Shown piece by piece: positions 20,516-42,037 of a DNA stretch of 64,000 nucleotides (position 1 is the stretch's first letter; the number at the start of each line of letters is the position of its first letter). The stretch is taken from the NCBI GenBank assembly GCA_963755025.1, contig CAVWIH010000014.1, positions 32,001 to 96,000 on the forward strand, written 5' to 3'. The DNA is from an uncultured Actinomycetes bacterium (GTDB taxonomy: Bacteria > Actinomycetota > Thermoleophilia > UBA2241). The notes under the pieces were generated by a model, which saw only the letters and a list, made by a program, of their open reading frames with translations, did not search any database and was not told the DNA's origin. Made by a program: the position numbers and the translations under genes.

Positions 20516-20526
20516 GGGAATGGCGC

Positions 20527-22152: not shown

Positions 22153-22342
22153 CGGCCCTGACTACCCTTCCCCCGAGCGCCCGGCTCGGGGCCGTTGCGC
22201 ACCGCCCGGCGCTCGGATTTTCTCGGCCCACGCTCCCCCTTGTTCATCGGTGTGCAGGCCGCGCCACTTGAGGCGGGCCGACGTTGCCGGCACGGCCGCG
22301 GCGTCCGCGCCGGCCGGGGCCCCGGGGCGATGGGGCCGGTTG

Positions 22343-23116
22343 TCAGCAGCGCCGTTCGAGGCGCTCTATGGCGGTCGCCCTGCCACCCTCGGCGGTCACG
22401 ATCACGGCGTCTAAGCGCACGTCGCCGTCGGCCACCTCGAACTGCGCGGGCAGCTCGGTCAGGAAGCGTCGCAAGATGATCTCGCTGCGCACGCCGATCA
22501 CAGAGTCGCGGGGGCCGCACATGCCGACGTCGGTGATGGCGGCGGTGCCTTTGGCGCTGACGCGTTCGTCGGCGGTCTGCACGTGCGTGTGGGTGCCGAT
22601 CACGGCCGTCACGCGGCCGTCGAGGTACTGCGACATGGCGATCTTCTCGCTGGTCGCCTCGGCGTGGAGGTCGACGACGATGGTCTCGGCCAGCGTCTGG
22701 GCTTCGTCGACCAGGGCGTCGACTATGCGGAACGGCGAGATGCCGGTGCCCATGAAGACCTGGCCCATGAGGTTGATGACCGCGACCTCGACGCCGCCCG
22801 CGGCGGTGCGCACGGTCAGGCCGCGTCCGGGGCTCGACGGCGGAAAGTTGGCGGGCCGCACGATGCGCGCGCTGGAATCGAGGAACGGATAGACCTCGCG
22901 CTGGCGCCACACGTGGTTGCCGGTGGTGATGATGTCGACACCGGCGGTGAGCAGCTTCTGGGCGAGCTTCGAGGTGATGCCCGCGCCGTTGGCGATGTTC
23001 TCGCCGTTGGCTATGACGAAATCGGCGGCGGTGTCGTCGATCAGTTCGGGGAGCTCGCGTACGACGGCGTCGCGCCCGGGCTGACCGAAGACGTCGCCCA
23101 AAAACAGGATGTTCAC
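22343..23116 (-). CDS. ymdB: YmdB family metallophosphoesterase (TIGR00282)
   Basis: LFLGDVFGQPG, NGEN, TGNHVW, DLHAEATSEK, GTHTHVQTAD. Confidence 0.9.
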   Translation of the reverse strand: MNILFLGDVFGQPGRDAVVRELPELIDDTAADFVIANGENIANGAGITSKLAQKLLTAGVDIITTGNHVWRQREVYPFLDSSARIVRPANFPPSSPGRGLTVRTAAGGVEVAVINLMGQVFMGTGISPFRIVDALVDEAQTLAETIVVDLHAEATSEKIAMSQYLDGRVTAVIGTHTHVQTADERVSAKGTAAITDVGMCGPRDSVIGVRSEIILRRFLTELPAQFEVADGDVRLDAVIVTAEGGRATAIERLERRC

Positions 23117-23216: not shown

Positions 23217-24751
23217 TCAGGCCTTGAGGAACACGCGCACGGCGCCCTCGGCGGCGGCGATGACGGGCGCCGGATAGAGGCCCACGGCCAGCACGCCCAA
23301 CACGGCGACCACGGTGCTGGCCGTGATGCCGGCCCGCACGCCGAGCAGCTCGGGCAGCTCCGCGGCGGCGGCCGGCTCTTCGGCCTCGCGGAAGTAGAGG
23401 TACCACACGACCCGCAGGTAGTAGAAGGCCGACACCGCGCTCATGATCACGGCGACCACGGCCAGCCAGGTCATGTGGGCGGCGACCACCGCGGTGAAGA
23501 TGAAGAACTTGCCCCAGAAGCCCGCGAGCGGCGGGATGCCGGTGAGCGAGAGCATGAAGACCAGCATGGCGAGGGACGTGAGCGGCATGGTGCGCCCGAG
23601 TCCGGCGAGCTCGTCGAGGGTGTAGCGGAACGGCCGGCGGTTGCGGATGAGCACGAGCACGCCGAAGGCGCCGAGGTTCATGAAGGTGTAGGCGGCCAGG
23701 TAGAAGAGGATGGCGCTGGCCCCGGCGGGGTCGCCGCTGCGTCCGACGGCGATCAGGCCGAGCAGCAGGTAGCCGGCGTGGGCGATGCTCGAGTAGGCCA
23801 GCATGCGCTTGAGGTTGCGCTGCGGCAGGGCGAGCACGTTGCCCACGATCATGGTGGCCACGGCGAGCACGATCAGCACGTCCGACCAGCCCTGGGCGGC
23901 CGGCAGCAGAGCCGGACCGACGAGGCGCAGGAACCCGGCGAAGGCCCCCGCCTTGATGCCCACCGACATGAAGGCGGTGACCGGCGTGGGGGCGCCTTCG
24001 TAGACATCGGGCGCCCAGCCGTGGAAGGGCACCGCGGCGATCTTGAAGCCGAAGCCGGTCGCGACCAGCACCAGGGCGACCAGCAGCATGGCGTTGCGCG
24101 GGTCGGTATGAGAGAGGGCGGCGCGGATGGCGACCGTAGCCCGTCTGCCCGGTGACGCCGTAGACGAGCGCCAGGCCGAAGGCCAGCACCGCCGACGAGA
24201 AGGCGCCGTTGATGAAGTACTTGATGGCGGCCTCGCCCGAGCGGCGGTCGGAGCGCAGCACGCCGGCCAGCACGTAGCTGGGCAGCGACATGAGCTCGAA
24301 CGAGACGAGCAGGGCGATCAGGTCGGTGGAGACCGCCATGCCGATCATGCCGGCGAGGATGAGCAGCAGCAGCGCGTAGAACTCGCCGGGCTTGATGTCG
24401 TGTTGCGCGAGGTAGTCGTCGGACAGCAGGATGGTGAGCACACCGATGGCGCAGAACAGGACCGTGAAGAACAGGCCGTACCGGTCGAGGCGCACCATGC
24501 CGCTGAAGCCGTACTCCGGCCTGCGGGCGTTCATGACGAGGCCGCCCGTGAACACGCGCCAGAGCGCGCCGCCGCCCTGCCAGGTCGTCCACTGGGCGAC
24601 CGCCACCGCGGCGGCCACCACGAGGCCGGTCGCCGCGACCCACGCCGGCACGAGCCGGCGACCGCCGGCGAAGGCGTCGACGAACAGCACGACGAGGGCC
24701 GTCGCCAGCACGATGGCACGGGGGCAGCACGACGATGATCGAATCGTTCAT
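23217..24751 (-). CDS. nuoN: NADH-quinone oxidoreductase subunit N (frameshifted)
   Basis: FELMSLPSYVL, EAAIKYF, FKIAAVPFHGWAPDVYEGAPTP, KRMLAYSSIAHAGY. Confidence 0.9.
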
Positions 24752-26343
<1,592 letters not shown>

Positions 26344-28241
26344 TTATGCCCCCCAGAAGTACCGGATGAGGATGACGAGCACGAACAGGCCGCCGAACAC
26401 GCCGAAGGCGTAGCTCTGGGCGCGTCCGGTCTGCAGCGGCCGCAGGGCGCGCCCGCAGCGCGCCCCACGCCCAGGCGAGGCCGTTGACGGCGCCGTCGAT
26501 GACCTTGACGTCGACGAAGGTCCACAGCCAGGTGGCGAAGCCCATGACCGGACGGATCACGGCGCCCTCGTAGAACTCGTCCATGTAGAACTTGCGGTAG
26601 GAGGCCTGATAGGCCCAGGGCACGAGCGCCACGACGCGCGCCGGCAGGCCGGGGCGCCGCAGGTAGGCCACGTAGGCGGTGTAGATGCCCGCCACCACCA
26701 CGGCCAGTGAGAGCAGCAGCAGGCCGCCGCCGGTGCCGGCCCAGACGAAGTGCTCCTTTTCGACGTTGAAGAACACGGGCTGCAGGAAGGTGTGCAGCCA
26801 GCCGCCGTCGGGCGGCAGGCCGACGACCAGGCCGAGCACGGCCGCCGGGCACCGCGAGAATGACGAGCGGCCAGGTCATGACGCGCGGCGACTCGTGGAT
26901 GTGGCTCTGCACGTCGGGCGCCGAGCGGTTCTCGCCCCAGAAGGTCAGGAAGATGAGGCGGAACATGAACAGGGCGGTGACGAAGGCGGTGACCAGGCCG
27001 ATGACCCAGACAAAGTAGTAGTGGGCGCTGAAATCGCCGCCCAGGATCTCGTCTTTGGCCCAGAAGCCGGCGAAGGGGAACAACCCCACGTTGGCCAGGG
27101 CGCCGATCATCATGGCCCAGAAGGTGATGGGCAGCTTTTTGCGCAGGCCCCCCATGCGGCGCATGTCCTGCTCGCCCGACATGGAGTGGATCACCGAGCC
27201 CGAGCCCAGGAACAGCAGCCCCTTGAAGAAGCCGTGGGCGAACAGGTAGAAGATGGCCGCCACCCAGGCGCCCGCGCCCAGGGCCATGAACATGAAGCCC
27301 AGCGACGAGATGGTGGAGTAGGCGATCACCTTCTTGATGTCGTTCTGGGTGAGCGCGATGGCGGCCGCGTAGATGGCCGTGAAGGTGCCCACGATCATCA
27401 CCACCAGCATGGCCGTGTGCGACTGGCTCACGAGCGGGTAGCTGCGGGCGATCATGTAGACGCCGGCGTTGACCATGGTGGCGGCGTGGATGAGGGCGCT
27501 GACCGGGGTCGGGCCCTCCATGGCGTCGGGCAGCCAGACGTGCAGCGGGAACTGGGCGCTCTTGCCCACCGCTCCCACGAACAGCAGCAGGGCGATCCAG
27601 GTGATGACGCCGTGGCTCACGTGCGGCGCGCGGGCGAAGACCTGGCCGAACTGCAGCGAGCCGAACGTGGTGAAGATGAGGAACAGGCCCAGCGTGAAGC
27701 CCCAGTCGCCCACGCGGTTCACGAGGAAGGCCTTCTTGCCCGCCTGCGACGCCGACTTCTTGTGGAACCAGAACGAGATCAGCAGGTACGAGCACAGGCC
27801 CACGCCCTCCCAGCCGAGGAAGACGAGCAGGTAGTTGTTGGCCAGGATGAGGGTGAACATGGCGAACATGAAGAGGTTGAGGTAGGCGAAGAAGCGGTAG
27901 TAGCCGCCGTCGCCGCGCATGTAGCCGATCGAGTAGTAATGCACGAGCATGCCGATGGTGCTCACCACGATCAGCATGATGGCCGCCAGCGAGTCGACGA
28001 GGTAGCCCCACTGCACGCGGAACGTACCGGCCGACACCCAGGTGAACAGGTTGAAGTCGATGGCCTTGGTGTGGTGACCCAGGACGTGCGCCACGACGAT
28101 CATGGAGAGCACCCACGAGGCGGTGACCGCGATGAGCGAGACGACCTCGGGCCGCCGCTTGAGCACGTTCTTGCCGAGCAGGAGCGTGACCAGGAAGCCG
28201 GCCAGCGGCACCAGGGGGATGAGGGTGATCATGACATGCAT
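26344..28241 (-). CDS. nuoL: NADH-quinone oxidoreductase subunit L (frameshifts near 26850 and 26460)
   Basis: GWEGVGLCSYLLI, GKSAQFPLHVWLPDAMEGPTPVSALIHAATMV. C-terminal IDGAVNG...LQTGRAQSYA. Confidence 0.92.
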
Positions 28242-28251
28242 GCGCGCCGCC

Positions 28252-28560
28252 CTAGCCCTTCAGCTCGCTGAACTCGTCGGCCTGGACCGAACGCCGGTTG
28301 CGATAGTTGGCCACGATGATGGCCAGGCCTATGGTGACCTCGGCCGCGGCCAGCGTGACGATGAAGAGCACGAAGAAGGTACCGCGGGCGCCGGCGTGCG
28401 GCATGAAGTTGGCAAAGGCCGCCAGAGCGATGTTGACCGCGTTCAGCATGAGCTCGAGGCTCATGACGATGAGCAGCACGTTGCGCCGCGCGAGCACGCC
28501 GTAGGCGCCTATGCAGAACAGGCCGGTGGCGAGCGTGAGATACCAGTCGACGGGGCTCAT
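28252..28560 (-). CDS. nuoK: NADH-quinone oxidoreductase subunit K
   Basis: RRNVLLIVMSLELMLNAVN, AAAEVTIGLAI. Confidence 0.92.
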   Translation of the reverse strand: MSPVDWYLTLATGLFCIGAYGVLARRNVLLIVMSLELMLNAVNIALAAFANFMPHAGARGTFFVLFIVTLAAAEVTIGLAIIVANYRNRRSVQADEFSELKG

Positions 28561-29069
28561 GGCAGTCGGTCCTCTTTGCGGGCCAGCACGATGGCGCCGA
28601 TCATGGCCGCCAGCAGCACGAACGACACGAGCTCAAAGGGGAACACGTAGCCGTTGAACAGCCCGCTGGCGATGCCGGAGAGCGAGATGTTGTGCGACGT
28701 CGAGCCGTTGGGGGCCATCTTCGAGGTCACCAGGATGACGGTGATCACGACGGCCGTGGCGACCGCCAGCGGCGCGGCGAAGATGGCCTGGCGGTTGAAG
28801 AAGAAGCCGAGCTTGGTCTCGCGCTGGTCGGTCATCATGATGGCGAACAGCACGACCACCGAGATGGCGCCCACGTAGACCAGGATCTGGATGATCGCCA
28901 GCAGGCCGGCGTTCAGCAGCACGTAGGCCGCCGCCACACCCAGAAAGCAGAGGACCATGGACATGGCCGAGTGCACGACGTTGCGGAAGGCCACGACGCC
29001 GAGGCCGCAGACCAGCACCCAGACGGCCACGATGACGAACAGGACCGGATGAAAGTCGCCGTGGGGCAT
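28557..29069 (-). CDS. nuoJ: NADH-quinone oxidoreductase subunit J
   Basis: RNVVHSA, QILVYVGAISVVVLFAIMM, PFELVSFVLLAAMIGAIVLAR. Confidence 0.9.
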   Translation of the reverse strand: MPHGDFHPVLFVIVAVWVLVCGLGVVAFRNVVHSAMSMVLCFLGVAAAYVLLNAGLLAIIQILVYVGAISVVVLFAIMMTDQRETKLGFFFNRQAIFAAPLAVATAVVITVILVTSKMAPNGSTSHNISLSGIASGLFNGYVFPFELVSFVLLAAMIGAIVLARKEDRLP

Positions 29070-31555
29070 CAGTCGCCGCGCTCCATCTCGTCGAGGTCGA
29101 GGCCGTCGCCCTTGACCGGCGTCCACTGCCAGCCGTTGCCTTCGACGGCGTCGCGCACGCGCGGGTCGACGTCGGGCACGGCCGACTCGGCCAGCGCGGC
29201 CGGCCTGGCGGCGCGCACGTAGAGCGACTCCCCGGCGAGCTGGGTACGGCTGGTGCCGGCCAGCTCGAAGAAGTCGGTCTGCTCGAGGGCGCCGTAGGGG
29301 CAGACCTCGACGCATTCGCCACAGAAGATGCAGCGGCTCTCGTCTAAGTCGTAGCTCTGCAGGGCGCGCTGGTTGACCTGGATGGACCCGGTCGGGCAGG
29401 TCTCGGCGCAGCGCCCGCACGAGACGCAGCCCACGGTCTGCAACGGCAGGTTGTCGGGCGTCGAGACGATCGTGTCCCAGCCGCGGCCGATGGCGTCGTA
29501 GCAGCTCGCCCCGACCTCCATGCGGCAGACCCGCACGCAGCGCAGGCACATGATGCAGCGGTTGGGCTCGCGCATGATGAAGTCGTGACGAAAGTCGGCC
29601 GGGTAGTCGTGGGAGGCCTGCCCGTGGAACCTGTTGGCGAAGACCTCGTACTCGATGCCGTAGCGCTGCAGGTCGCAGCTGCCGTTGGCCGGGCAGTGGC
29701 AGTCGAGGCAGAGCTCGGCGCCGAGGCGCGCCTGGGCTTCGGTGAGACCCAGGTCGACCTCGTCGAAGGTCGTCGTGCGGGCGCCCAGCGCCAGCGTGGC
29801 CGTCTCGACCGGCGGCGCGGGGTGCGAGACGTCGGTGGTCATGTCGATGAACACCGGCGGTATCTCGGCCATGCGCACGACGGTGGGGTCGAGCTCGCGC
29901 CGCGCTCCGAGGGCGGCCACGAACGGCTTGGCCTGCAGCTCGGCGAGGGCGCGCGCCACCTCGCGCATGTCGAGCCCACGCAGGAACGCATCGATGCTCC
30001 AGGCGGCCTTCTTGCCCTGAGCGACGGCTTCGACCACGGTGCGCGCGCCCAGCACGACGTCGCCGCCGGCGAAGATGCGCGGGTCGTCGGTCTGGAGCGT
30101 GAGCCCGTCGACCTCGATGGTGCGGGCGGCCGTGCGCTTGACGCCCTGCTCTTCGCTCGTGCCGTCGAGCTTTGGGAAGAGCTCGGTGGCGTAAATCAGC
30201 TGGTCGCAGGCGACGACCGACGTAGGACCGGCGGGCGTGGGCTGGTAGCGGCCCTCGGCGTCGGGCGCGCCCGCGTCGGTGGGCTGCACCTCGATGCCGG
30301 TTAGCTTGTGGCCCGAGTCGGTGACGACGCGCACCGGGGCGACGAGCGAGCGCACGTGCACGCCCTCTTCTTCGGCCGCGGCGACCTCGGCCGCGGGGGC
30401 CGCCATCGCCTGACGGGGCTCGTGGCACAGCAGCGTGACCTCGCGGGCGCCCTTGCGGACCGCTATGCGACAGGCCTCGACGGCGGCGAAGCCGTCGCCG
30501 ACGACGGCCACCCTGTCGCCGACGCTGACGTCGCCGGCAAGTTCGACGTCGCCGACGAAGTCGAGCGCGGCGACCACGCCCGCGGCGTCGTCGCCGGCGA
30601 TGCCGAGGGCGGCGGAATCGAGCGCACCGAGGCCCAGGAAGACGGCGTCGTACTCAACGGTCAGGTCGTCGAGCTGGTAGTCGACGCCGAGGCGCGTGTC
30701 GCACTCGAGCTCGACCCCCATGCGCCACAGGACGTTGAGCTCCTTGTCGAGCACGGTGCGCGGCAGGCGGAAGTTGGGGATGGCGTAGCGCAGCATGCCG
30801 CCGGGCTTGGGCAGCGCCTCGAAGACCTTGACCCGATGGCCCTCGAGACGGGCGTAGAAGGCGCACGCGAGGCCGGCCGGACCGGCGCCGACGACGGCGA
30901 TCTTCTTGCCGCTGTCGGGCTTGGGCTCGACGGGCAGCAGCAGCTCGCCGGCCTGCTCGTCGTCGAGGCACTGGTCGGCCATGAAGCGGTGCAGCCGGCA
31001 GATCGTGATCGGCTGGTCGACGAGCTGGCGCCGGCAGGGCTCTTCGCACGGGTGCGTGCAGACGCGGCCGAGGATGGCCGGGAACGGCAGGTCCTCGCGC
31101 AGCTTGCGCACGCCCGACCGGTAGTCGCCGCGCGCGATGGCGTCGAGGAACTGCGGGATCTTGATATGCGTCGGGCAGGCGTCGCGGCAGGGCGGCGTGC
31201 AGAAGGAGTTGTGGTCGGACAGCAGCAGCTCGAGGTAGAGGCGCCGCATCTTGCGCACCTTCTCGGTGTCGGTGTGCACGACGATGCCGTCGGCGGCAGC
31301 CGTCGAGCAACTCGACACGGGCTTGCCCCAGCCCTCGACCTCGACCATGCACAGGCGGCAGGCCGCCGACGCCGGCAGCCGGGATTCGTAGCAGAGGGTG
31401 GGGATGTGGATGCCGACGCGCTCGGCCGCCTGCAGTATGGTCTCGCCGCGATCGCAGGTCACGTCGCGACCGTCGATGGTCAGCGCGATCTGCGAGGCGC
31501 GCACCGCGGGATGTGATGCGGCTGTAGCTTCGGGCTTGTCGTTGCGCGGCGTCAT
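29069..31555 (-). CDS. NuoG/HydA-like Fe-S subunit with an inserted GltD/NfnB-like FAD domain and a C-terminal half of NuoI
   Basis: In order: IPTLC..ACRLCMVE 2Fe-2S; SDHNSFC; PCRDACP...GRVCTHPCEEPC; VVGAGPAG; CLDCHC...CDLQ; CIMCLRCVRVC; CVSCGRCAETCP; then YDLDESRCIFCGECVEVCP..ALEQTDFFELA. One uninterrupted ORF. Confidence 0.85.
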   Translation of the reverse strand: MTPRNDKPEATAASHPAVRASQIALTIDGRDVTCDRGETILQAAERVGIHIPTLCYESRLPASAACRLCMVEVEGWGKPVSSCSTAAADGIVVHTDTEKVRKMRRLYLELLLSDHNSFCTPPCRDACPTHIKIPQFLDAIARGDYRSGVRKLREDLPFPAILGRVCTHPCEEPCRRQLVDQPITICRLHRFMADQCLDDEQAGELLLPVEPKPDSGKKIAVVGAGPAGLACAFYARLEGHRVKVFEALPKPGGMLRYAIPNFRLPRTVLDKELNVLWRMGVELECDTRLGVDYQLDDLTVEYDAVFLGLGALDSAALGIAGDDAAGVVAALDFVGDVELAGDVSVGDRVAVVGDGFAAVEACRIAVRKGAREVTLLCHEPRQAMAAPAAEVAAAEEEGVHVRSLVAPVRVVTDSGHKLTGIEVQPTDAGAPDAEGRYQPTPAGPTSVVACDQLIYATELFPKLDGTSEEQGVKRTAARTIEVDGLTLQTDDPRIFAGGDVVLGARTVVEAVAQGKKAAWSIDAFLRGLDMREVARALAELQAKPFVAALGARRELDPTVVRMAEIPPVFIDMTTDVSHPAPPVETATLALGARTTTFDEVDLGLTEAQARLGAELCLDCHCPANGSCDLQRYGIEYEVFANRFHGQASHDYPADFRHDFIMREPNRCIMCLRCVRVCRMEVGASCYDAIGRGWDTIVSTPDNLPLQTVGCVSCGRCAETCPTGSIQVNQRALQSYDLDESRCIFCGECVEVCPYGALEQTDFFELAGTSRTQLAGESLYVRAARPAALAESAVPDVDPRVRDAVEGNGWQWTPVKGDGLDLDEMERGD

Positions 31556-33481
31556 GCGCCCTGCCGCCCTTCGTCGGCCTGGTCGGACCGTTCGACTCCG
31601 GAGCGCACCTTGACCGCGGCGAAGTTGCAGACCTGCCGACAGGTGTCGCACTTGATGCACAGGTCCTCGTCGATCACGTGGATCTGCTTCTTCTCGCCGG
31701 TGATGGCTTTGGTGGGGCACTTCTTGGCGCAAAGGCCGCAGCCCGTGCAGTCGCCGCCGATGTAGTAGGTGATGAGCGCCTTGCAGCGGCCGGCGGGGCA
31801 GCACTTATCGTGGATGTGCGCCTCGTATTCGTGGCGAAAGTACTGGAGCGTGCTCAGCACGGGGTTCGGAGCACTGCCGCCGAGGGCGCACAGCGAGCCG
31901 TCGATGATGTACTCCGAGAGCTCCTCGAGCAAGGCGATGTCGCCGGGACGCCCCTCGCCATCGGTGATGCGCACGAGCGTCTCGAGCATACGTTTGGTGC
32001 CCAGTCGGCAGGGCACACACTTGCCGCAGCTCTCGTCCTGGGTGAACTGCAGAAAGAACTTGGCGAAGTCGACCATACAGGTGGCGTCGTCGACCACGAC
32101 CATGCCACCGGAGCCCATCATGGAGCCCGCAGCGAGCAGGCTCTCGAAGTCGACGGGCGAGTCGAGCAAGTCGGCAGGCAGGCAACCGCCCGACGGTCCT
32201 CCGAGCTGAACGGCCTTAAACTCACGGCCGGGCAGCATGCCGCCGCCGATATCGAAGATGACCTCGCGGAGCGTGGCGCCCATCGGCACCTCGACGAGGC
32301 CGCCGTTCTGCAACTTTCCCGTCAGGCTGAATATCTTGGTGCCCTTCGAGGTCTCGGTACCCATCGCGCGGTAAGCGTCGACGCCGTTCGACACGATCCA
32401 GGGCACGTTGGCGAACGTCTCGACGTTGTTCAGGTTGGTGGGCTCGCCGTAGAGGCCGTGGGCGACCGTGCGGATGTGTTTGCCGCGCGGCATGCCGCGC
32501 TGGCCCTCGATGCTCGCCGTCAGTGCGGTCGATTCGCCGCAGACGAAGGCGCCGGCACCCTGGTTGATGACGATGTCGAACGTAAAGCCTGAGCCGAGGA
32601 TGTCGTCGCCTAGCAGGTTGCGTTCGCGGGCCTGGGCAAGCGCGGCGTCGAGGCGCTGCACGGCGAACGGATACTCGGCGCGGACGTACACGTAGCCGTG
32701 CACCGGGGCGACGCCGGCGCCGATAGCGAAGGCAGCGATAATCATACCCTCGATCACGGAGTGCGGGTTGCCCTCGAGCACGGAGCGGTCCATGAACGCG
32801 CCGGGGTCGCCCTCGTCGCCGTTGCAGATGACGTACTTGCAGTTGCCGGGGTTGGCCCGGCAGAAGCGCCACTTCTTGCCGGCGGGGAACCCGGCGCCGC
32901 CGCGGCCGCGCAGGCCGGCCGACTCCACCGTGTCGATGACGGCCATGGGGTCGTCGGCGGCGAGCACCTGAGCTAGGGCCCGGTAGCCGCCCTGCGTCAG
33001 GTAGTCGTCGATAGAGTACGGGTCGATCTTGCCGTTCAGCGCGAGTACGAGCCGGCGCTGACCGGCGTAGAAGGGGATGTCGCTCTCGTAGGGCACCGGC
33101 TTGCCGCTGCCGGGATCCTTGTAGAGCCGTTTCTCGTAGATGCCGTCGGAGGTGATGCTGGCGCCGATGATGCCGGCGACGTCGCTTGCGCGCACCCGCG
33201 AGTAGAACAACCCCTGCGGCTGTACAACTACGATAGGCCCCTGCTCGCAGAAGCCGTGGCAACCAGTCTCGACCACGCGCACTTCATCGGCAAGGCCGAG
33301 CTCGCCAAGCTGATCGTGGAAGGCGGCAGTCGACGGCTGGGCGTCCCGAGGCGTGACAAGCAGTGCCGGCGCAGATGCGCACCTCGCGCGCGCCGTCGTG
33401 CGCGACGACCTGGTCGGCGTGAAGGGCGCGTTCGAGGGCGGCGTGGACGGCCTGTGCGCGGTCGGTGGTCGTGGTGCTCAT
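31552..33481 (-). CDS. nuoF: NuoF/HydB-like flavoprotein of bifurcating type (frameshifts near 33285-33320)
   Basis: N-terminal CAGTAC...TGCHGFCEQGP 2Fe-2S; GLRGRGGAGFP; NGDEGDPGAFMDR; GGPSGG; CGKCVPCRLG; C-terminal 2x[4Fe-4S]. Confidence 0.85.
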
Positions 33482-34241
33482 CGGTCGACCTCGGCCCTCT
33501 GTCGGAGCTCGTTTACGAGGCCGCGCGCCCTGTCGGGCGTCATGCGGCCGTGGGTCTCGTCGTCGCCGATCCTGACCACGGGAGCGAGAGCGCACGCGCC
33601 CACGCAACTCACCGTCTGGAGCGTGAACAGCCTGTCTTTTGTGGTCTTGCCGACTTCGATGCCGAGCTCCTCGGCGAAGGCCTCGGTGATGAGCGGCGCG
33701 CCGGCGACGTGGCAGGCGGTGCCGTGGCAGACGGTGATCGACGAAGCGGCCGACCGGCGACAGCCGGAACTGGTCGTAGAAGCTGGCCACGCCGTAGAGC
33801 TGCGAGAGCGACACGCCGGTCTCGACCGAGATCTCCTCGAGGGCGAGCGCGCGGCAGGTAGCCGTAGATCTCCTGCGTGTGCTGCAGGACGGCCATGAGG
33901 CCCGTGCCGGTCTCGCGGTAGTGGTCGATGACCGGCGCGATCCGGGTGAGGTCGGGCGCCGGCTGCGAGTCGGCGCGCACCCGCTTGATGCGCGCCTCGT
34001 TCACGGCCGGCAGCGCGTGCGTCGACTGGTAGTTGACGCGGATGACCTGCACGGGGCAGTTGGTCTCGCACAGCGTGCAGGAGCGGCAGCGGGGCTCGCC
34101 CGTCGCCGGGTCGACGACCACCCGGAACAGCCCGCGGCTGCGCTCCGGGAGCTGCTCGCGCTGCTCGGGGTACTGGACCGTGATCTTGCGCTGCGGCAGG
34201 TGGCCCAGGGTGGTGCGCATGGCTTTGAGGATGCCGAGCAT
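33478..34241 (-). CDS. Fusion of the NuoI N-terminal half with NuoE/HydC (frameshifts near 33850 and 33740)
   Basis: ITVQYPEQREQLPERSRG...CRSCTLCETNCP (NuoI-N) is in frame with LMAVLQHTQEIYGYLP. Then GVASFYDQF, VCHGTACHV, SCVGACALAPV (NuoE). Confidence 0.85.
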
Positions 34242-35365
34242 CAGGTGAGCACCGCCACGCGGCTACGCTGCCGCTTGAGCCGCCAGCGCAGCACCGAGTC
34301 GAACAGGCCGACGAAGGCGATCAGGAAGATCCAGCTGTAGATCGCCATGGCGAGCTTCCAGTGCGGCGCCCAGAGCATGACGGCGGCGGTCGCCAGGATG
34401 TTGACCAGGCCGAGCGGGATGAGCACCTTCCAGGCGAATCCCATGAGCTGGTCGACCTGCAGCCGGGGCACCGACAGGCGGATCCAGACCAGGGCGAAGA
34501 CCAGCGCGTAGACCTTGACCAGGAACCAGACGATGGGCGATGAGCGACACGCCGTGGATGACGAACGCGTTCGCGAGCGGTCCCTGCCAGCCGCCCAGGA
34601 ACAGGGTGACCGTGACCATCGACATGATGGTCATGCCGGCGTACTCGTTCAGGAAGAACATGCCGAAGCGCATGCCCGAGTACTCGGTGCCGTAGCCGGC
34701 CACGAGCTCGGATTCGGATTCGGGCAGGTCGAAGGGCCCGCGGTTGAGCTCGGCGATGGAGGCGATGAAGAACAGCAGGAACGTGAAGGGCATGGTGAAG
34801 GCGAACCACTCGTAGTGGCTCTGGGCGCGCACCACGGCGTTCAGGCTGAGCGAGTCGGCGGCCATGGCGACGACCAGCAGGGCGAGGATCATGGGCAGCT
34901 CGTACGAGACCATCTGGGCCGCCGAGCGCAGGGCGCCGACCAGCGAGTACTTGTTGTGCGAGGCCCAGCCGCCCAGCAGGATCGCAGAGCACCGTGAAGC
35001 TCGTGATGGCGACGATGTAGATGAGGCCGACGTTCAGGTTCTGGTCGGTCCAGCCCTTCGTGTAGGGAATGACGACCTGGATGGCGACCGCGCCGATCAT
35101 GACCATGATCGGCGCCAGCGTGAACATCGCCTTGTCGGCGGCAGCCGGCGCGAAGTCTTCTTTGCCCATCATCTTGAACGAGTCGGCGACGCTCTGCAGG
35201 ATGCCCTGCCAGCCGGTGCGGTTGGGGCCCAGGCGGTCCTGCAGGAAGGCCAGCATGCGGCGCTCGAAGAGGATGTTGACGAGCGCCGCCACGAAGACGA
35301 TGCGAGTAGGCGATGGCGACCGCCACGACGACGCGCACGATGGCCCAGACGAGGTCCCAGCTCAT
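34241..35365 (-). CDS. nuoH: NADH-quinone oxidoreductase subunit H (several frameshifts)
   Basis: ERRMLAFLQDRLGPN, QMVSYELP, AELNRGPFDLPESESELVAGYGTEYSG, PRLQVDQLM..WK. Confidence 0.9.
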
Positions 35366-36579
35366 CGGTCGATCCCTCCGAGTACGAGGTCCATGCTGCC
35401 CGAGATGGCCACGGCGTCGGCGATCTTGTTGCCGCGCAGCAGCTTGGGGAAGATCTGCAGGTTGCACGAAGCAGGGGTCGCGGAACTTGAGCCGGTAGGG
35501 GTAGCGCGAGCCGTCGCTCACGATGTAGGTGCCGTACTCGCCGCGCGGGTTCTCCTGGCCTGTGTAGCAGGCGCCGGGCGGCGGCGTGATGATGTAGGGC
35601 GCGCGCAGCGTGCCGAGCTGCACCGGGCCGGGCGCCAGCAGGTCGAGCGCACTGCAGCACGATCTTGGCCGACTCGCGGATCTCGTCGACCCGCACCTGG
35701 TAGCGGTCGAGCACGTCGCCGTGCTCGCCCAGGCAGACCTTGAAGTCGAGCTCGGGGTAGACCGAGTAGGGCCGCGTGCGGCGCAGGTCGTGCGCCACGC
35801 CCGAGGCGCGCGCGTTGGGACCGGTGATGCCGTAGTCGGCCACGTCTTCCTGGGTCATGACGCCCTTGCCCATGCAGCGCTGCAGGAAGACGGCGTTGTC
35901 GTTGACGAGCGACTCGTACTCGTCGCACCAGGCGGGCACCTGGGCCATGAGCGCGCGGCACTTCTCGACCCAGCCGTCGGGCAGGTCGTAGCGCACGCCG
36001 CCGAAGCGGAAGTAGTTGAACATCATGCGCGCGCCGCTGGCCGACTCGAAGAGGTCGAGGATCTGCTCGCGGTGGCGGAAGGCGTAGAACACGAGGGCCG
36101 TGCCCAGGGGCGCGAGGTCGGCGGTGAACGTGCCGACGCCGACCTGGTGGCTGGCGATGCGGTTGAGCTCGGCCATGATCGATGCGGATGAACTCGGCGC
36201 GGCGCGTGGGCCGTATGCCGGCGAGCTTCTCGACGGTCATCACGTAGCCCCACTCGCAGTTCATGCCGGCGACGTACTCGGTGCGGTCGACGATCGGGAT
36301 GTACTGGAAGTAGGTGCGCTTCTCGGCGATCTTCTCTTTGCTGCGGTGCAGGTAGCCGATCACCGGGATGACGTCTTTGATGAGCTCGCCGTCGAGCGTG
36401 ACGACCAGGCGCAGCACGCCGTGGGTCGAGGGATGCTGCGGCCCCATGTTGACGACCACCTGGTCGAAGCCCAGCCCCGCCATGTCGCTGCCGTGACCGG
36501 AGGCCTCGGACGCGGCGATGCGCCGCAGCGCCAGGGCCATGGCCTCGTCGGGGGCCGCTATGGGAAAGGGCTCAGGCAT
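35362..36579 (-). CDS. nuoD: NADH-quinone oxidoreductase subunit D (frameshifted)
   Basis: NMGPQHPSTHGVLRL, GYLHRSKEK, DRTEY, AELNRIASH, ENPRGE, DLVLGGIDR. No Ni-binding CxxC. Confidence 0.9.
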
Positions 36580-37066
36580 GCGGGTGGTTCTCGACCGAGT
36601 CGACGTAGTCTTTGCGCAGCGGGTGGCCCACCCAGTCGTCGCCGAGCAGGATGCGGCGCAGGTCGGGATGGCCGTCGAAGCGGATGCCCATCATGTCCCA
36701 GGCCTCGCGCTCGTGCCAGTCGGCGGCGGGCCAGACGTCGGTCACCGTGGGCAGCACGGGCTTGTCGCGCGCCACGTCGACGTGCAGCTCGAGGTAGGTG
36801 TTGGAGGCGAACGAGTAGAGGTGATAGACGGCCTCGAAGCGCTCGCCGTGGTCGACGGCGGCGACGAAGTTGCAGGTCTCGTAGGCGATGCCGTCGAGCG
36901 CGCGCAGGGCCACCGCGAGGTCGTGCAGGCGAGCGCCCGCGACGATCGCGACGACGGTGTCGGGCTCCTGGACCCGCGCCTCGGCCAGGTCGTCGCCGAG
37001 CTCGGCGGCAAGGCGCGCGGCGACGGCGTCGATCGACAGGGCGGCGGAACCGATGGCCGGCAGCAC
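36572..37066 (-). CDS. nuoC: NADH-quinone oxidoreductase subunit C
   Basis: WPAADWHEREAWDMMGIRFDGHPDLRRIL..DWVGHPLRKDY. Confidence 0.92.
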   Translation of the reverse strand: MLPAIGSAALSIDAVAARLAAELGDDLAEARVQEPDTVVAIVAGARLHDLAVALRALDGIAYETCNFVAAVDHGERFEAVYHLYSFASNTYLELHVDVARDKPVLPTVTDVWPAADWHEREAWDMMGIRFDGHPDLRRILLGDDWVGHPLRKDYVDSVENHPHA

Positions 37067-37067
37067 G

Positions 37068-37760
37068 CTAGCTCCTGACCTTCTCGAGGCGGTCGTCAAC
37101 GGGCGGCGCGTCGTCGGCGACGTCGCTGCCGGCCTCAGCGTCGGGCGAGGCGGCGGGCGTGGCGCTTGCCGCGGGCGCGACGGCTTCGGGCGTCGCCTCG
37201 GCGACGGGCGCGGCGTCGGGGGGCGCCTGCAGCGGCGGCACGATGCGCATGGCCTGGATCTTCTTCTGCAGCTCGAGCAGCCCCTGGAACAGGGCCTCGG
37301 GGCGGGGCGGACAACCGGGGATGTAGACGTCGACCGGCACGATCTTGTCGACGCCGTTCACGACGTTGTAGCTATCGTAGAACGGGCCGCCGCTCGTGGC
37401 GCAGGCGCCCATGGCGATGACCCACTTGGGCTCGGCCATCTGCTCGTAGAGGAGCTTGAGCACGGGCGCCATCTTCTCGTTCACGGTGCCGGCCACGATC
37501 ATGAGGTCGCACTGCCGGGGCGTGGGCCGAAAGACCTCCATGCCGTAGCGCGCCACGTCGTAGCGGGCAAAGCCCGAGCTCAGCATCTCGATGGCGCAGC
37601 AGGCGAGACCATAGGTGAAGGGAAAGACGGAGTGCGAGCGCGCCCAGCTGAAGATGAAGTCGACCGTGGTCGTGACGACGTTGGGCTTTTCGAACTGGCT
37701 GATGTTGGGGTAGTGCACGTTCTCGGCGAGGGCCTTGAGATCGAGGTCGGTCAGACCCAT
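37068..37760 (-). CDS. nuoB: NADH-quinone oxidoreductase subunit B
   Basis: [35 protein letters not shown]. Confidence 0.93.
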
Positions 37761-38119
37761 TCGAGAGCCCCCTTGCGCCAGGCGTACACGAGGCCCACCG
37801 CCAGGACGGCGACGAAGACGACGACCTCGACGAAGCCCGTCGAGCCGAGGCTGCGAAAGCGCAGGGCCCAGGGGAACAGGAAGATGGCTTCGACGTCGAA
37901 GACCAGAAAGAGCAGGGCGAAGATGTAGTAGCGCACCGCGAACGGGTGCCAGGAGTCGCCGACCGGCTCGATGCCGCACTCGTAGGTGGAGTACTTGTCG
38001 CGCGAGGGGTGGACCGGGTAGATGAGCCGCGACATCAGCAGGATGCCTACGACCATCGCGGCGCCCGCGGCCATGAACACCGCGACGTAGATCCAGTTTG
38101 TCAGGAATGCGGTCGTCAT
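37751..38119 (-). CDS. nuoA: NADH-quinone oxidoreductase subunit A
   Basis: [41 protein letters not shown]. Confidence 0.93.
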
Positions 38120-38208: not shown

Positions 38209-38349
38209 CCTGCTCTCAAGGCCCCGGCAGACCCCGCGGACATGCCCGTTTTGCAGGACATTAGTACGGCGCGCCGGCGCGCTTTCGAGCGCGCCCGGCG
38301 GCGCGGCCGGCGGCGCGGCCCAGAAGAAGCCGCTCTTTGCAGGAGAAGA

Positions 38350-38378
38350 TTGACGCTCTCGAGCCGGGTGCGTACTCT
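38350..38378 (+). promoter_or_regulatory. Sigma70-type promoter for tatBC
   Basis: TTGACG-17 bp-TACTCT. Confidence 0.6.
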
Positions 38379-38426
38379 GGGGAAGAGGCTCAAGCGGCCC
38401 CTGAACCCACGAAGGCAGGTCCTCAA

Positions 38427-39023
38427 GTGTTTCCCGGGATCGGACTCTCCGAGATCGCCATAGTGATCCTTATCGCCCTGGTCGTGTTCGGCCCCAAGCG
38501 GCTGCCCGAGATGGGGCGCCAGCTCGGCAAGGTCATCCGCGAGTTCCGCGACGCGACCTCCGACATACGTTCGCAGATCGGCATCGACGACATCACCGAC
38601 TCCGTCAAAGACATCAAGTCGGGCTTCAGCCTCACCTCGACCGGCGGCGCCACGACCGGCGCAGCCGCCGCCACGCCGGCCGCGGCTGCTACGCTCGACG
38701 CCGCGCTCGATACGCCGCAGATCGACACCGCGAGCGCCCCCGCGGCCACGCGCAGCAGCAACCGGCCGGTCGCCGCCGGCGCGCCGCCGGCCGCTCCCGA
38801 GGTGCGCAACGGCCCGGTCGCCGCGGGCGCGCCGGCACCGGCCGCGCCGCCCGTCGCCGCCGAGGCGGCCGTCGGCGCCCCGTCCCCGGTCACCGCCCCA
38901 TCACCGGTCAGCGCCCCGTCACGCGTCGCCGACGACGCCGGCGCCGGTGCTGAGGGAGGCGTCGAAGCGTTCGGCAAGCTCACCCGCCGCTCCGCTTCGT
39001 CGGTCCGCCCGACCGCCGACTGA
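38427..39023 (+). CDS. tatB: Twin-arginine translocase TatB/TatA family subunit with Ala/Pro-rich tail
   Basis: MFPGIGLSEIAIVILIALVVFGPKRLPEMGRQLGK. Confidence 0.8.
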   Translation: MFPGIGLSEIAIVILIALVVFGPKRLPEMGRQLGKVIREFRDATSDIRSQIGIDDITDSVKDIKSGFSLTSTGGATTGAAAATPAAAATLDAALDTPQIDTASAPAATRSSNRPVAAGAPPAAPEVRNGPVAAGAPAPAAPPVAAEAAVGAPSPVTAPSPVSAPSRVADDAGAGAEGGVEAFGKLTRRSASSVRPTAD

Positions 39024-39030
39024 CGGCGGC

Positions 39031-39819
39031 ATGGTCGACTTCGAAGAGAAAGTCACTCTTGTCGAGCACCTCGACGAACTGCGCCGGCGCATCGTCTACG
39101 CCGCGATAGCCCTGCTGGTCGGCATCCTGCTCGCCGCCCTCCTCAACCGCTTCGTGTTCGCGCTCCTGCTCCATCCGCTCAAGGTGCTGCCGGCGGGCGC
39201 GCCCCACAAGATCGTCACCTTCGGCCCGGCCGAGCCCTTCATGGTCAGCCTCAAGGTGTGGGCCTACTTCGGCATCGTGGCGGCCTCGCCGATCATCATC
39301 TATCAGTTCTGGGCCTTCATCGGGCCGGCTTTCAGCCCCGTCAGCCGGCGTGTGGTCCTGTTCGTGGTCGCCTGCTGCGTCTTTCTGTTCCTCTTCGGCG
39401 TGGTGTTCTGCTACCTCATCGTCCTGCCCCGGGGCCTGGCGTGGCTGTTCGACTTCAACAGCCACTACTTCACGGCCCAGGCGCGAGCCACCGACTACTT
39501 CTCGTTCGTCGCCTGGTTCCTGGTGGCGTTCGGGGCGGTCTTCGAGATGCCGGTCGTGATCATCGCCGCGGTGCGCATGGGCATCGTCAAGACCAAGTTC
39601 CTGCGCAAGAACTGGCGCTACGCCATCGTGATCAACGCCGTCATCGCCATGGTGGCCACTCCCAGCCAGGACGCCTTTTCGTTCATCGCCATGTTCATCC
39701 CGCTCGAGATCCTCTACGAGATCTCGCTGCTCATCGCGCGCGTCATGGAGAAGCGCCGGGCGGCCACCGCCTCGCAGCCGGCCGACGACGACACCGGGCC
39801 CACCACCGCTCCCGCCTGA
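39031..39819 (+). CDS. tatC: Twin-arginine translocase TatC
   Basis: TLVEHLDELRRRI, YQFWAFIGP, FEMPV, ATPSQD, LYEIS. Confidence 0.92.
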   Translation: MVDFEEKVTLVEHLDELRRRIVYAAIALLVGILLAALLNRFVFALLLHPLKVLPAGAPHKIVTFGPAEPFMVSLKVWAYFGIVAASPIIIYQFWAFIGPAFSPVSRRVVLFVVACCVFLFLFGVVFCYLIVLPRGLAWLFDFNSHYFTAQARATDYFSFVAWFLVAFGAVFEMPVVIIAAVRMGIVKTKFLRKNWRYAIVINAVIAMVATPSQDAFSFIAMFIPLEILYEISLLIARVMEKRRAATASQPADDDTGPTTAPA

Positions 39820-39844
39820 TGAAGCGGTACACTAGGGCTACCTC

Positions 39845-41932
39845 ATGAAGGACGTAGCAGACACGACCCCGACCAAACGCGCCCGCAAACGCCGCGCCAA
39901 GCGGCGGCCGCGCATGCACTGGGGCCGCCTGATCGTCTGCATCGTGATCTTCGCCGTGATCGCCGTGGTGGGGCTCGTGAGCGGCACCATCGTCGCCGTG
40001 TCGCACAACCTGCCCAACATCGACGCCATGAAGCCCCAGCAGCTCGGCCAGGACACCGTGATCTTCGACCGCAACGGCAACCGCATCGCCGAGCTCTACG
40101 GCGCGGTGAACCGCGTCGTGGTGCCCAGCAGGCAGATCCCCGAGGTCATGAAGAACGCCACCGTGGCCATCGAAGACAAGCGCTTCTACAAGCATCACGG
40201 CGTCGACTTCACGGGCATCGCCCGCGCCCTGGTCGACGACATCAAGGCCGGCCACGTGGTCGAGGGCGCCAGCACGATCACCGAGCAGTACGTGAAGAAC
40301 GCCTACATCGGCGACGACCCCACCCTCACGCGCAAGCTCAAAGAGGCGGTGCTCGCCTGGGAGCTCGAGGACCGCTGGTCCAAAGACAAGATCCTCACCG
40401 AATACCTGAACACCGTCTACTACGGGGCCGGCGCCTACGGCGTGCAGGCGGCGGCGCTCACCTACTTCCACAAGCCGGTCTCAAAGCTGACCCTGCCCCA
40501 GGCGGCGCTGCTCGCCGCGCTGCCCAAGTTCCCCAGCGAGTACTCGCCGATCACCGACCCCCAGGTCATCACCGAGCGCCGCAACCTGGTGCTCGACGGC
40601 ATGGCCCAGCAGGGCTACATCACCGTCGCCCAGGCCGCCGCGGCCAAGGCCGTCAAACTGCGCGTGTACGCCAAACCGGTCTCGAAGACCAACGACCCGG
40701 CGGGCTACTTCGTCGACTACGTCACCGGTCTGCTCGTCAACCGCTACGGCGCAAGCGAGGTCTACGAGGGCGGCCTGCGCGTGTACACCTCGATCGACAT
40801 GTCCATGCAGCAAGACGCCATCGCCGCGCTCAAGGAGCGCCTGCCCTCCACCGGCCAGGCCGGCGCCCTCGTGGCCATCGACCCGACCAACGGCTACATC
40901 CGCGTCATGTCGGCCAGCACCGACTTCAAGACCTACAAGTACGGCCTCGACTGGCAGGCACAGCGGCAGCCGGGCTCGACCATGAAGCCCTTCGCCCTCA
41001 TCGCCGCCGTCGAAGAGCACGCCGACCCGGCCACCACCTACTACAACTCGCACCCGCTGCACATCTACCTGGGTCCCGGCGCGAACCCGCCCTATTGGGA
41101 CGTCTACACCGCCGAAAAGTCGTCGGGCGGGCGCATGAACCTGGTGCAGGCCACCCTGCAGTCCGACAACACGGTGTTCGCCCAGCTCTGCCTCGACCTG
41201 GGGCCGGCGGCGATCGTGAAGGTCGCCCACGAGATGGGCGTCACCACCAAGCTCACGGCGATCCCCTCGATCGTGCTGGGCAGCGAAGACGTGAACGCGC
41301 TCGAGATGGCCGACGCCTACGCCACCATGGCCAGCGAGGGCGTGCACCACGCCCCACAGGCGATCGAGAAGGTCGTCTTCCCCAGCGGCAAGGTCGTCAA
41401 GACCAAGATCAAGGGCAACCGCGTGCTGTCGGCCGGCGTAGCCTACACCGTCGACAAGATCCTCGAGCAGAACACGAGCTCGTCGGGCGGCACCGCGGCG
41501 TCGATGCCCGACTACTACAGAGGCCGCTCGGCGGGCAAGACGGGCACCACCGACAACTACGTCGATGCCTGGTTCGACGGCTTCAACCCCAAGCTGGCGA
41601 CGGCCGTCTGGATGGGCTATATCGACTCGCGGCCCATGCCCGACGTGTTCGGCGCCACCTACTCGCTGCCCATCTGGGGCACGTTCTACAACAGCGTCTT
41701 CGGCTCGACCTACATCCCCGACTTCGCCACGCCCGCGGTCATGCCGTACTGGCTGCCGTGGGAGGGCAAGTACTCCAAGATGGCGCCGTCCCCGTCGCCC
41801 TCGCCCTCGTCGGGCTCGCCGTCGCCCGGGCCGACCCACACGACCCCCGCGACGACACCGCCGACGACGCACTCCTCGTCGCCCAAGCCGACGACACCGC
41901 CACCGACCACCACGGCCTCGCCCAAACCGTAG
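39845..41932 (+). CDS. Class A penicillin-binding protein (transglycosylase/transpeptidase)
   Basis: EDKRFYKHHGVD, GASTITEQY, SxxK (STMK), SDN, KTG. Ser/Pro/Thr-rich tail. Confidence 0.92.
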   Translation: MKDVADTTPTKRARKRRAKRRPRMHWGRLIVCIVIFAVIAVVGLVSGTIVAVSHNLPNIDAMKPQQLGQDTVIFDRNGNRIAELYGAVNRVVVPSRQIPEVMKNATVAIEDKRFYKHHGVDFTGIARALVDDIKAGHVVEGASTITEQYVKNAYIGDDPTLTRKLKEAVLAWELEDRWSKDKILTEYLNTVYYGAGAYGVQAAALTYFHKPVSKLTLPQAALLAALPKFPSEYSPITDPQVITERRNLVLDGMAQQGYITVAQAAAAKAVKLRVYAKPVSKTNDPAGYFVDYVTGLLVNRYGASEVYEGGLRVYTSIDMSMQQDAIAALKERLPSTGQAGALVAIDPTNGYIRVMSASTDFKTYKYGLDWQAQRQPGSTMKPFALIAAVEEHADPATTYYNSHPLHIYLGPGANPPYWDVYTAEKSSGGRMNLVQATLQSDNTVFAQLCLDLGPAAIVKVAHEMGVTTKLTAIPSIVLGSEDVNALEMADAYATMASEGVHHAPQAIEKVVFPSGKVVKTKIKGNRVLSAGVAYTVDKILEQNTSSSGGTAASMPDYYRGRSAGKTGTTDNYVDAWFDGFNPKLATAVWMGYIDSRPMPDVFGATYSLPIWGTFYNSVFGSTYIPDFATPAVMPYWLPWEGKYSKMAPSPSPSPSSGSPSPGPTHTTPATTPPTTHSSSPKPTTPPPTTTASPKP

Positions 41933-42037
41933 GCCCGACCAGGGCCGAACGCCCGAGTGGCGCGCCGCGGTGTTCGGCGCGCAAGCGGCTTGGGCCGACC
42001 TGAGGCGGCGGCCCGGCCGGTTGCCGGCCGGTCGCCC

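Follow-up and report, generated by a model that had tools for sequence, protein, structure and literature searches.

The 64,000-nucleotide stretch of contig CAVWIH010000014.1 analysed here—hereafter called the window—carries a nuo operon of 13 genes, which runs for about 15 kb from position 38119 down to 23217 on the minus strand. By analogy with described systems, we think it rather probable that this operon encodes a second, non-canonical complex I, in which an input module of the electron-bifurcating family, BfuCBA, is set inside nuoI and most likely confurcates electrons from reduced nicotinamide adenine dinucleotide (NADH) and ferredoxin to menaquinone, with proton pumping. The gene order is nuoA, nuoB, nuoC, nuoD and nuoH, then the N-terminal half of NuoI fused to BfuC, BfuB, and BfuA fused to the C-terminal half of NuoI, and finally nuoJ, nuoK, nuoL, nuoM and nuoN. 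NuoA, B, C, D, H, J, K, L, M and N, which make up the membrane and quinone parts, are ordinary, and the split of NuoI is the truly unusual part of the system. The source genome, a bin of 3.37 Mb in 39 contigs (84% complete, ~70% G+C), holds six PF01512 copies and also possesses a canonical nuo operon on the same contig (C14, locus L109), where NuoD, NuoF and NuoI matches lie at ~134000–141100, about 38 kb past the window end.

The central gene of the module, at 31552–33481 on the minus strand, had been described in the first-pass annotation as a NuoF homolog with HydB-type features, and its sequence confirms that the product is a HydB/BfuB-type subunit, not a canonical NuoF. The protein is composed of an N-terminal thioredoxin-like 2Fe-2S domain, a core for flavin mononucleotide (FMN) and NADH, an N3-type 4Fe-4S cluster, a His/Cys3 hinge and a C-terminal 2x[4Fe-4S] domain. 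In the 576-residue open reading frame (ORF) at 31552–33282, Pfam detects Complex1_51K (E 6e-42), NADH_4Fe-4S (E 4e-34) and Fer4 dicluster families at residues 510–556, together with SLBB at 22.2 bits (E 1.3e-4), under the 27-bit cut-off. With SLBB at this lower level, Pfam equivalents of all four domains by which Schut 2022 collected BfuB are found in the ORF. The motifs that the annotation had named are all present: GDEGDPGAFM at residue 155 of the ORF, FKAVQLGGPSG at residue 355 (QLGGPSG at 361), the His/Cys hinge and the C-terminal 2[4Fe-4S] domain. CGKCVPC lies at residue 419, and a motif scan places HIHDKCCPAGRC at residue 489. The C-terminal cluster motifs of the B3 and B4 sites, which have the form CX2CX2CX3C(P), are CTGCGLCAKKCP at residue 512 and CIKCDTCRQVCN at residue 542, the second of which finishes with CN rather than CP.

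The N-terminal part of BfuB lies partly outside this ORF, because an extra base at ~33330, which we consider below, shifts the frame. Bases 33481–33332 encode MSTTTT...ICAGTACHASGRPAV, ending with CHASGRPAV, and past the extra base the frame of the ORF reads TAAFHDQLG...VETGCHGFCEQGP / TAAFHDQLG...ETGCHGFCEQGP. Aligned with the intact orthologs of the related genomes G004 and G011, these pieces meet exactly, neither overlapping nor leaving a gap. In the G011 ortholog (638 residues, 88% identical), the 2Fe-2S_thioredx domain (PF01257) spans residues 28–105, in addition to the other domains, and four cysteines of this domain are present in the window, which bears out the extra N-terminal thioredoxin-like domain that had been proposed. 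These four cysteines, in CAGTAC and CHGFC on either side of the frameshift artefact, belong to the B5 site, which may hold either a cluster or zinc. The examined orthologs retain every ligand cysteine of the B3, B4, B5 and C1 sites, along with AFM and GGPSG. The AFM and GGPSG motifs around FMN and NADH are reported to be conserved in bifurcating BfuB and absent from non-bifurcating homologs (Xiao 2025, PMC12018979), and the latter are described as having no B2–B5 clusters (Schut 2022, PMC9304861). The motifs of the annotation are the very ones given in print as hallmarks of bifurcating BfuB.

Comparisons with solved structures agree with this assignment. In a phmmer search of the PDB, the G011 ortholog matched, over its full length, the B chains of bifurcating enzymes with 784 (7t2r_B), 726 (8a6t_B), 718 (9bov_B), 715 (7q4v_B), 703 (8oh5_B), 695 (9n5u_B) and 643 bits (7p5h_B), as compared to 390 bits for the FdsB type, 358 for Nqo1 and 329 for E. 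coli NuoF. With E ~1e-235 to the solved BfuB chains, this match is far beyond chance. In the reverse control, the canonical NuoF of the same genome (contig C14, ~135.4–136.7 kb) matched E. coli NuoF with 427 bits and the Bfu B chains with ~303–318 bits. Canonical NuoF has ~420–450 residues, no extra cluster domains and its best match in the complex I 51-kDa subunit, while the window protein has ~640 residues, extra domains and its best matches among Bfu B chains. In a quick maximum-likelihood tree of 32 rows, rooted at the midpoint, canonical NuoF (the genome's own copy and that of E. coli) is split from the 30 BfuB-type rows, with a support of 99 in the Shimodaira–Hasegawa-like approximate likelihood ratio test (SH-aLRT), so the protein does not cluster with non-bifurcating NuoF. 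The window BfuB pairs with that of G004, and both belong to a clade made up solely of sampled relatives and records titled 'Thermoleophilia'.

Where, then, is the NuoI of this operon? No separate nuoI is found between nuoH and nuoJ in the window operon, and the first-pass annotation had overlooked that NuoI is split, as well as the frameshift in the BfuB gene and the GltD-containing, NfnA/StnC-type nature of the G subunit. The gene at 33478–34241 (minus strand) encodes a fusion of 253 residues, in which the N-terminal half of NuoI (~residues 1–75, with one CxxCxxCxxxCP motif) is followed by a linker and then by NuoE/BfuC (~100–250, thioredoxin-like 2Fe-2S). The BfuC part matches PF01257 (E 1e-43, residues 104–245), has the NuoE-like four-helix bundle and thioredoxin-like domain, displays the C1 2Fe-2S ligands CHGTAC...CVGAC in the alignment, and finds its best PDB matches in 8oh5_A, 9bov_C and 9n5u_C. 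Against the PDB, residues 4–70 of the fusion align with residues 30–95 of TYKY/NuoI (E ~1e-7), and the last ~100 residues of BfuA align with the C-terminal half of NuoI (TYKY 104–143, NdhI 87–149, Nqo9 73–172; E 1e-10 to 3e-8).

The two halves tile the NuoI profile. When the NCBIfam profile TIGR01971 (121 positions) was run against the whole genome, its positions 2–66 matched the fusion at window 34020–34220 with 50 bits, and its positions 69–115 matched at window 29234–29374 with 45.5 bits. The only match over the 113-bit family cut-off covers positions 1–121 with 156 bits and belongs to the canonical operon; the window operon encodes no single-polypeptide NuoI with both CxxCxxCxxxCP motifs and more than 113 bits. 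In BLASTP against the genome's own NuoI, the N-half is 36% identical (E 2e-14) and the C-half 32% (E 7e-10). These alignments show that NuoI is split, with its N-half as the N-terminus of BfuC and its C-half as the C-terminus of BfuA. The break point is the loop between the two CxxCxxCxxxCP motifs of NuoI, and therefore the BfuC, BfuB and BfuA genes are in effect inside nuoI. BfuA carries three such motifs, of which the first two fall within the Fer4_Nqo3 match, as in HydA and StnC, and the third is the NuoI motif. We infer that this third motif pairs with the single motif of BfuC and thereby rebuilds the two-cluster NuoI fold. A complex prediction on the two halves returned a score of 0.18 against a mark of 0.32, which counts neither for nor against binding.

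BfuA, encoded at 29069–31549 (minus strand, ~826 residues), occupies the place of NuoG, and its domain composition indicates that it is an NfnA/StnC-type BfuA, not an ordinary NuoG. Pfam detects, in order, Fer2_4 (2Fe-2S), Fer4_20 with Pyr_redox_2 (a GltD-like domain with Rossmann folds for flavin adenine dinucleotide (FAD) and NAD(P)), and a Fer4_Nqo3-like region with the His/Cys site and 2x[4Fe-4S]; the third CxxCxxCxxxCP motif and the NuoI C-terminal tail then follow. The molybdopterin-like domain of NuoG and the C-terminal domain of the Nfn-Bfu/Stn A subunits are both absent. The best solved relatives are 9bov_A (483 bits), StnC 8oh5_C (436) and NfnA 9n5u_A (367), and residues 10–698 of 9n5u_A are colinear with residues 25–712 of BfuA.

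The pocket for NADP(H), the phosphorylated nicotinamide cofactor, is a different matter. The fingerprint of 9bov_A, 8oh5_C, 9n5u_A and NfnI-L, vvGGGNTAMD...YRR..eMpA, is replaced in the window by VVGDGFAAVE...LLCHEPRQAMAA, while GGGFTAMD...LYRRSRKEMPAH is retained in the orthologs of G001, G005, G013, G014, G015, G031, L022, L025, L026 and L028. The FAD fingerprint and the Fer4_20 cysteines are retained in all aligned BfuA orthologs, including those of the window type. The constraint on NADP(H) binding thus seems to have been relaxed in the window's sub-lineage, where NADP(H) use is doubtful; where the pocket is canonical, as in most orthologs, NADP(H) could serve as a fourth partner.

How might such a complex work? 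As far as is known, Thermoleophilia use menaquinone. We propose that the NuoI halves carried by BfuC and BfuA would assemble into the usual two-cluster fold, and that this rebuilt NuoI would fasten BfuCBA to NuoB, NuoD and NuoH, the quinone module (Q-module). The route of the electrons would then lead from the clusters of BfuA over those of NuoI and N2 in NuoB to the quinone. In the confurcating direction, NADH would be oxidized at the BfuB FMN together with reduced ferredoxin, which would react on the B3/B4/C1 side, at the C-terminal clusters of BfuB and BfuC, and the electrons would reduce menaquinone and drive proton pumping. Such joint oxidation would provide a larger driving force with the low-potential menaquinone, and the reaction might be reversed when ferredoxin must be reduced. 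This scheme is drawn by analogy with the Nuo-Bfu proposal (PMC9304861) and the Nfn-Bfu mechanism (PMC12018979).

Several observations weigh against this scheme. The quick tree contains E. coli NuoF as its sole characterised reference and no named bifurcating enzymes. The change of GGGxTAMD...YRR..EMPA to GDGFAAVE...CHEPRQAMAA in the window is shared in kind by the closest relatives (G004, G006, G007, G008 and G011), which have GDGFAA and a variable stretch where YRR is expected; with its NADPH fingerprint degenerate, the 'Nfn' part of the analogy is weak for the window genome. BfuA has no large C-terminal domain of the kind that scaffolds NuoG, and therefore the geometry of the complex must differ from the canonical one. 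In BLASTP, the BfuA C-terminus also aligns weakly with the first motif of NuoI, via its preceding motif. Because of this alternative, the assignment of the motifs depends on the Fer4_Nqo3 match and the profile tiling, and it is the tiling of the sequences that suggests the pairing of the two NuoI halves. Finally, ferredoxin dependence, quinone type and proton pumping are predicted properties here, as they are for every Nuo-Bfu.

The same enzyme might instead run in reverse, with the proton-motive force and menaquinol reducing ferredoxin and NAD(P)+ for biosynthesis, as proposed for Nitrospina NUO-2. This idea has been put forward in print for the HydB-like NuoF of nitrite oxidisers (PMC3578206), the NADPH site is kept in the sister orthologs, and these genomes hold ferredoxin-using enzymes, such as the Por-Bfu cluster described below. 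Nothing direct speaks against it, but a peat or soil heterotroph with pyruvate:ferredoxin oxidoreductase would more plausibly dispose of reduced ferredoxin, and we regard the reverse direction as possible but on the unlikely side. Slightly less probable still, in our judgement, is a plain, non-bifurcating NADH:menaquinone complex I, whose extra clusters and GltD domain are structural or regulatory leftovers of its ancestry. The degenerate NADPH pocket of the sub-lineage demonstrates that parts of the module can decay, and the B2 and B5 sites may hold zinc in place of clusters (Xiao 2025, PMC12018979), so that sequence motifs are no proof of redox roles. What speaks against this reading is that a canonical, 14-subunit-type nuo operon, whose NuoF and NuoI are ordinary, is already in the genome, and that the orthologs examined conserve the cysteine ligands of B3, B4, B5 and C1 as well as AFM and GGPSG.

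A third possibility is that the operon encodes two enzymes, of which one would be a soluble transhydrogenase similar to Nfn/Stn and the other a complex I of 11 subunits that relies on the NuoI of the other operon. The solved BfuCBA modules of this type are indeed soluble. However, BfuC and BfuA each include one half of NuoI in the same chain, the two halves tile the NuoI profile, the operon lacks its own nuoI, the layout is conserved across the family, and the gene ends overlap at the E/F, F/G' and G'/J junctions (G' being BfuA), which together make two separate enzymes very improbable. A covalent link of the input module to the Q-module by way of a divided core subunit leaves the question of one enzyme or two far less ambiguous here than for genes that are merely adjacent.

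The integrity of the operon itself also had to be considered, since the window sequence contains 15 single-base insertions between 23217 and 36579, all in the nuo operon; no deletion and no stop codon is present, and none of the insertions lies in a homopolymer. Three are found in nuoD (35362–36579; ~36180, 35647 and 35464), three in nuoH (34244–35358; ~35302, 34986 and 34538), two in the NuoI–BfuC fusion (~33847 and 33737), the one mentioned above in BfuB, and two each in nuoL (26344–28241; ~26848 and 26458), nuoM (24752–26343; ~26190 and 25257) and nuoN (23217–24751; ~24718 and 24132). Blastn against five relatives showed that each change is one extra base in the window which is missing from all of them; the site at ~24718 is the fifteenth. 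Consistently, tblastn with the intact operon proteins of G011, among which nuoM was not a query, revealed frame changes in nuoD, nuoH, the E fusion, F, nuoL and nuoN.

Contigs assembled from other sequencing runs settle the nature of these insertions. In the compared region, 31500–36600, four studies contributed contigs, from three DNA runs and an RNA run, and these omit one letter at nine of nine sites: 33332, 33738, 33846 (33839 in X3), 34538, 34985, 35302, 35467, 35651 and 36181/36182; the six sites in nuoL, nuoM and nuoN are outside this region. At the BfuB site, the contigs of runs X1, X2 and X5 omit letter 33332. Apart from this, the window and some of these contigs differ in just 2–4 letters per 850–880 bases (>99% identical), and the assembly's source sample may be among the compared runs. 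Since near-identical contigs omit the extra letter at all nine sites tested, we take the insertions to be consensus errors of the assembly and the genes to be intact in nature. By eye, most insertion contexts (GTGC, TCGC, CTCT, GGTC, CGCG, GCGC and CCGT) resemble both alleles of a synonymous third-position (wobble) single-nucleotide polymorphism (SNP) placed in tandem, and look like what is expected of a consensus over mixed strains. Programmed frameshifting and quadruplet decoding were considered and ruled out, as no word is common to the 15 four-base contexts and the extra bases are absent in other runs. That the operon is a decaying pseudogene cluster, as 15 frameshifts within ~15 kb might at first suggest, is scarcely credible when every one is a +1 insertion without any deletion or stop codon, most contexts look like tandem wobble alleles, all nine tested sites are absent from near-identical contigs, and the nuo proteins are 73–90% identical to those of relatives with every ligand kept. 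Elsewhere in the window, comparison with G011 reveals a few isolated +1 events, at ~8071, 54076 and 55694. On another contig of the same genome (G000), a further BfuB-type paralog (G000:C37:35925-37438) matches in two adjoining pieces (query residues 2–370 and 375–513), probably through another assembly frameshift.

The split-ferredoxin design is found in a second setting. The loci L106 (G014:C2:356000-375900) and L108 (G018:C5:46000-62000) contain a paralogous Por-Bfu cluster with PorG, PorA, a half-ferredoxin fused to BfuC, BfuB, and a GltD-containing BfuA fused to a ferredoxin motif and a thiamine pyrophosphate (TPP)-binding PorB-like domain. The N-terminus of its BfuC has the same single cluster motif, without the NuoI-specific TVQYPE segment in the alignment, and its BfuB falls among the nuo-linked BfuB proteins in the quick tree. 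The design thus seems to be used twice, in a complex I and in a pyruvate:ferredoxin oxidoreductase context. We tentatively suggest, as an idea that may well prove wrong, that BfuC-BfuB-BfuA is a cassette with half a 2x[4Fe-4S] ferredoxin at each end, set into NuoI in one case and into a PorD-like domain in the other, and that the ferredoxin fold, once reassembled, would be a universal plug by which a flavin bifurcation module is hard-wired to a partner enzyme. The complex I version would then be one proton pump serving up to four redox partners, namely NADH, ferredoxin, menaquinone and, in most of the family, NADPH.

How widespread is this arrangement? G011 (L020), G005 (L021) and G031 (L107), the last of another genus, have the operon intact and colinear with that of the window. 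In a class-level sample of 301 genomes, the fusion protein has a match in 55 of the 55 sampled genomes of one Thermoleophilia family (f1), and 46 of the f1 matches listed cover ~residues 1–243 or more of the 253. In other families, the best matches among those listed start at residue 26 or later, that is, without at least the first 25 residues, and represent the NuoE part. Among 401 genomes sampled across the phylum, the full-length fusion occurs solely in f1 (G000 and G031), and scanning species-representative genomes for the pattern yielded full-length matches just in Thermoleophilia-titled records and in one titled Actinomycetes. In a protein collection, the N-half matches 180 clusters at E <= 1e-5; PF01257 is present in all 120 listed, 115 of which are 250–255 residues long, and the clusters that are named are called just 'NADH-quinone oxidoreductase subunit E' or similar.

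DNA nearly identical to the window is found in runs labelled peat, soil or wetland metagenome. The RNA run X5 has contigs over parts of the stretch, a weak hint that the operon is expressed; RNA libraries may contain DNA. Copies of the fusion gene that are 69–79% identical are also present at L030 and L031, on contigs titled Vicinamibacteria and Coriobacteriia; the BLAST figures of the L031 BfuB equal those of the G001 BfuB, and binning or labelling may be the cause.

The remaining genes of the operon, all on the minus strand, complete the membrane and quinone parts. NuoA (37754–38119), NuoJ (28557–29069) and NuoK (28252–28560) were identified by tblastn with the G011 proteins, NuoK with a further check. 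In NuoB (37068–37763), the N2 cluster cysteines were spotted by eye in the translation, and NuoC (36572–37099) was recognized through Pfam Complex1_30kDa. The flanks at 19049–23116 and 38337–41932 contain intact genes for a beta-helix/pectate-lyase-like protein, a Bac_transf sugar transferase, YmdB, TatC and a class A penicillin-binding protein, with a TatA/B-like ORF, identified by eye, at 38337–39023. Beside the penicillin-binding protein gene, a 724-residue ORF at 41957–44131 (plus strand) matches no Pfam family at E <= 1e-5.

That any complex I performs flavin-based bifurcation or confurcation is so far a pure prediction, and the split-NuoI variant offers a natural construct for cryo-electron microscopy and assays. 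NuoI (TYKY) is among the most conserved core subunits of complex I. Its division between two other subunits implies that the fold tolerates assembly from two chains, and suggests how input modules were exchanged in evolution. The enzyme may matter for the energy conservation of Thermoleophilia in wet soils, given its many public metagenome clusters and the peat, soil and wetland runs. In annotation, the fusion proteins are presently labelled as subunit E alone.

How does the window system compare with known ones? Its nearest conceptual counterpart is Nuo-Bfu, the predicted bifurcating complex I of Schut 2022 (PMC9304861), for which NADH and reduced ferredoxin are proposed to reduce menaquinone with proton pumping. 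The suggestion in the first-pass annotation that the operon encodes a bifurcating-type complex I holds up with respect to family membership and the complete nuo operon; the idea itself is not new, having been published as the Nuo-Bfu hypothesis and foreshadowed for Nitrospina NUO-2. Like Nuo-Bfu as described there, the window operon has BfuABC in the middle of the nuo cluster, in place of NuoEFG, and a BfuB with extra clusters. Nuo-Bfu, in contrast, is described with 14 separate subunits A–N, an ordinary NuoI and a BfuA without the NADP domain, as compared to the 13 genes, split NuoI and GltD-containing BfuA found here, and its hosts are Deferribacteres, Proteobacteria, Planctomycetes and Nitrospirae, not Thermoleophilia. 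The words 'fused', 'fusion', 'split' and 'actinobacteria' are absent from the main text of PMC9304861, whose supplements may list such clusters. Our literature searches found no description of a split-NuoI or GltD-type complex I layout, a point on which the same supplements may bear, and PMC7325909 (Hakuba actinobacteria) and PMC7311640 contained nothing bearing on the architecture.

Among solved enzymes, the StnABC/NfnABC (Nfn-Bfu) transhydrogenases 8oh5, 9n5u and 9bov are the best or near-best relatives of all three subunits, and their BfuA has the same order of a 2Fe-2S domain, a GltD-like domain with two 4Fe-4S clusters and FAD, and FeS domains. They are soluble, with A chains of 963–1178 residues that bear a further C-terminal domain, while the ~826-residue BfuA of the window bears the NuoI C-half instead; the window BfuC also has an added NuoI N-half, and the NADPH fingerprint has been lost in its sub-lineage. 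The BfuB and BfuC core is shared with HydABC and NiFe-HydABCSL (7t2r, 8a6t, 7q4v and 7p5h), including the top match of the F subunit, 7t2r_B. Unlike these bifurcating hydrogenases, the window has no hydrogenase subunit or H-cluster domain, and its third partner would be a membrane complex that reduces quinone.

Canonical complex I (E. coli, T. thermophilus) has in common with the window system the FMN/NADH core, N3, the NuoE fold, the 2Fe-2S and His-ligated cluster region of NuoG, and both NuoI motifs. It differs in that the window F subunit has extra N- and C-terminal cluster domains, the G subunit has GltD and no molybdopterin-like domain, and NuoI is distributed over two polypeptides. Like the window system, NUO-2 of Nitrospina gracilis and Kuenenia (PMC3578206) is a complex I whose NuoF bears an additional 2Fe-2S cluster and two additional 4Fe-4S clusters, and a link between quinol and ferredoxin has been proposed there too. 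NuoF2 of NUO-2 reportedly has no FMN site, while the FMN loop of the window BfuB is intact, and the available part of that paper reports neither GltD nor a split NuoI for NUO-2. The concept of a bifurcating complex I is already published, and what is new here is the setting of an Nfn/Stn-type Bfu module in a split NuoI, within one family of Thermoleophilia.

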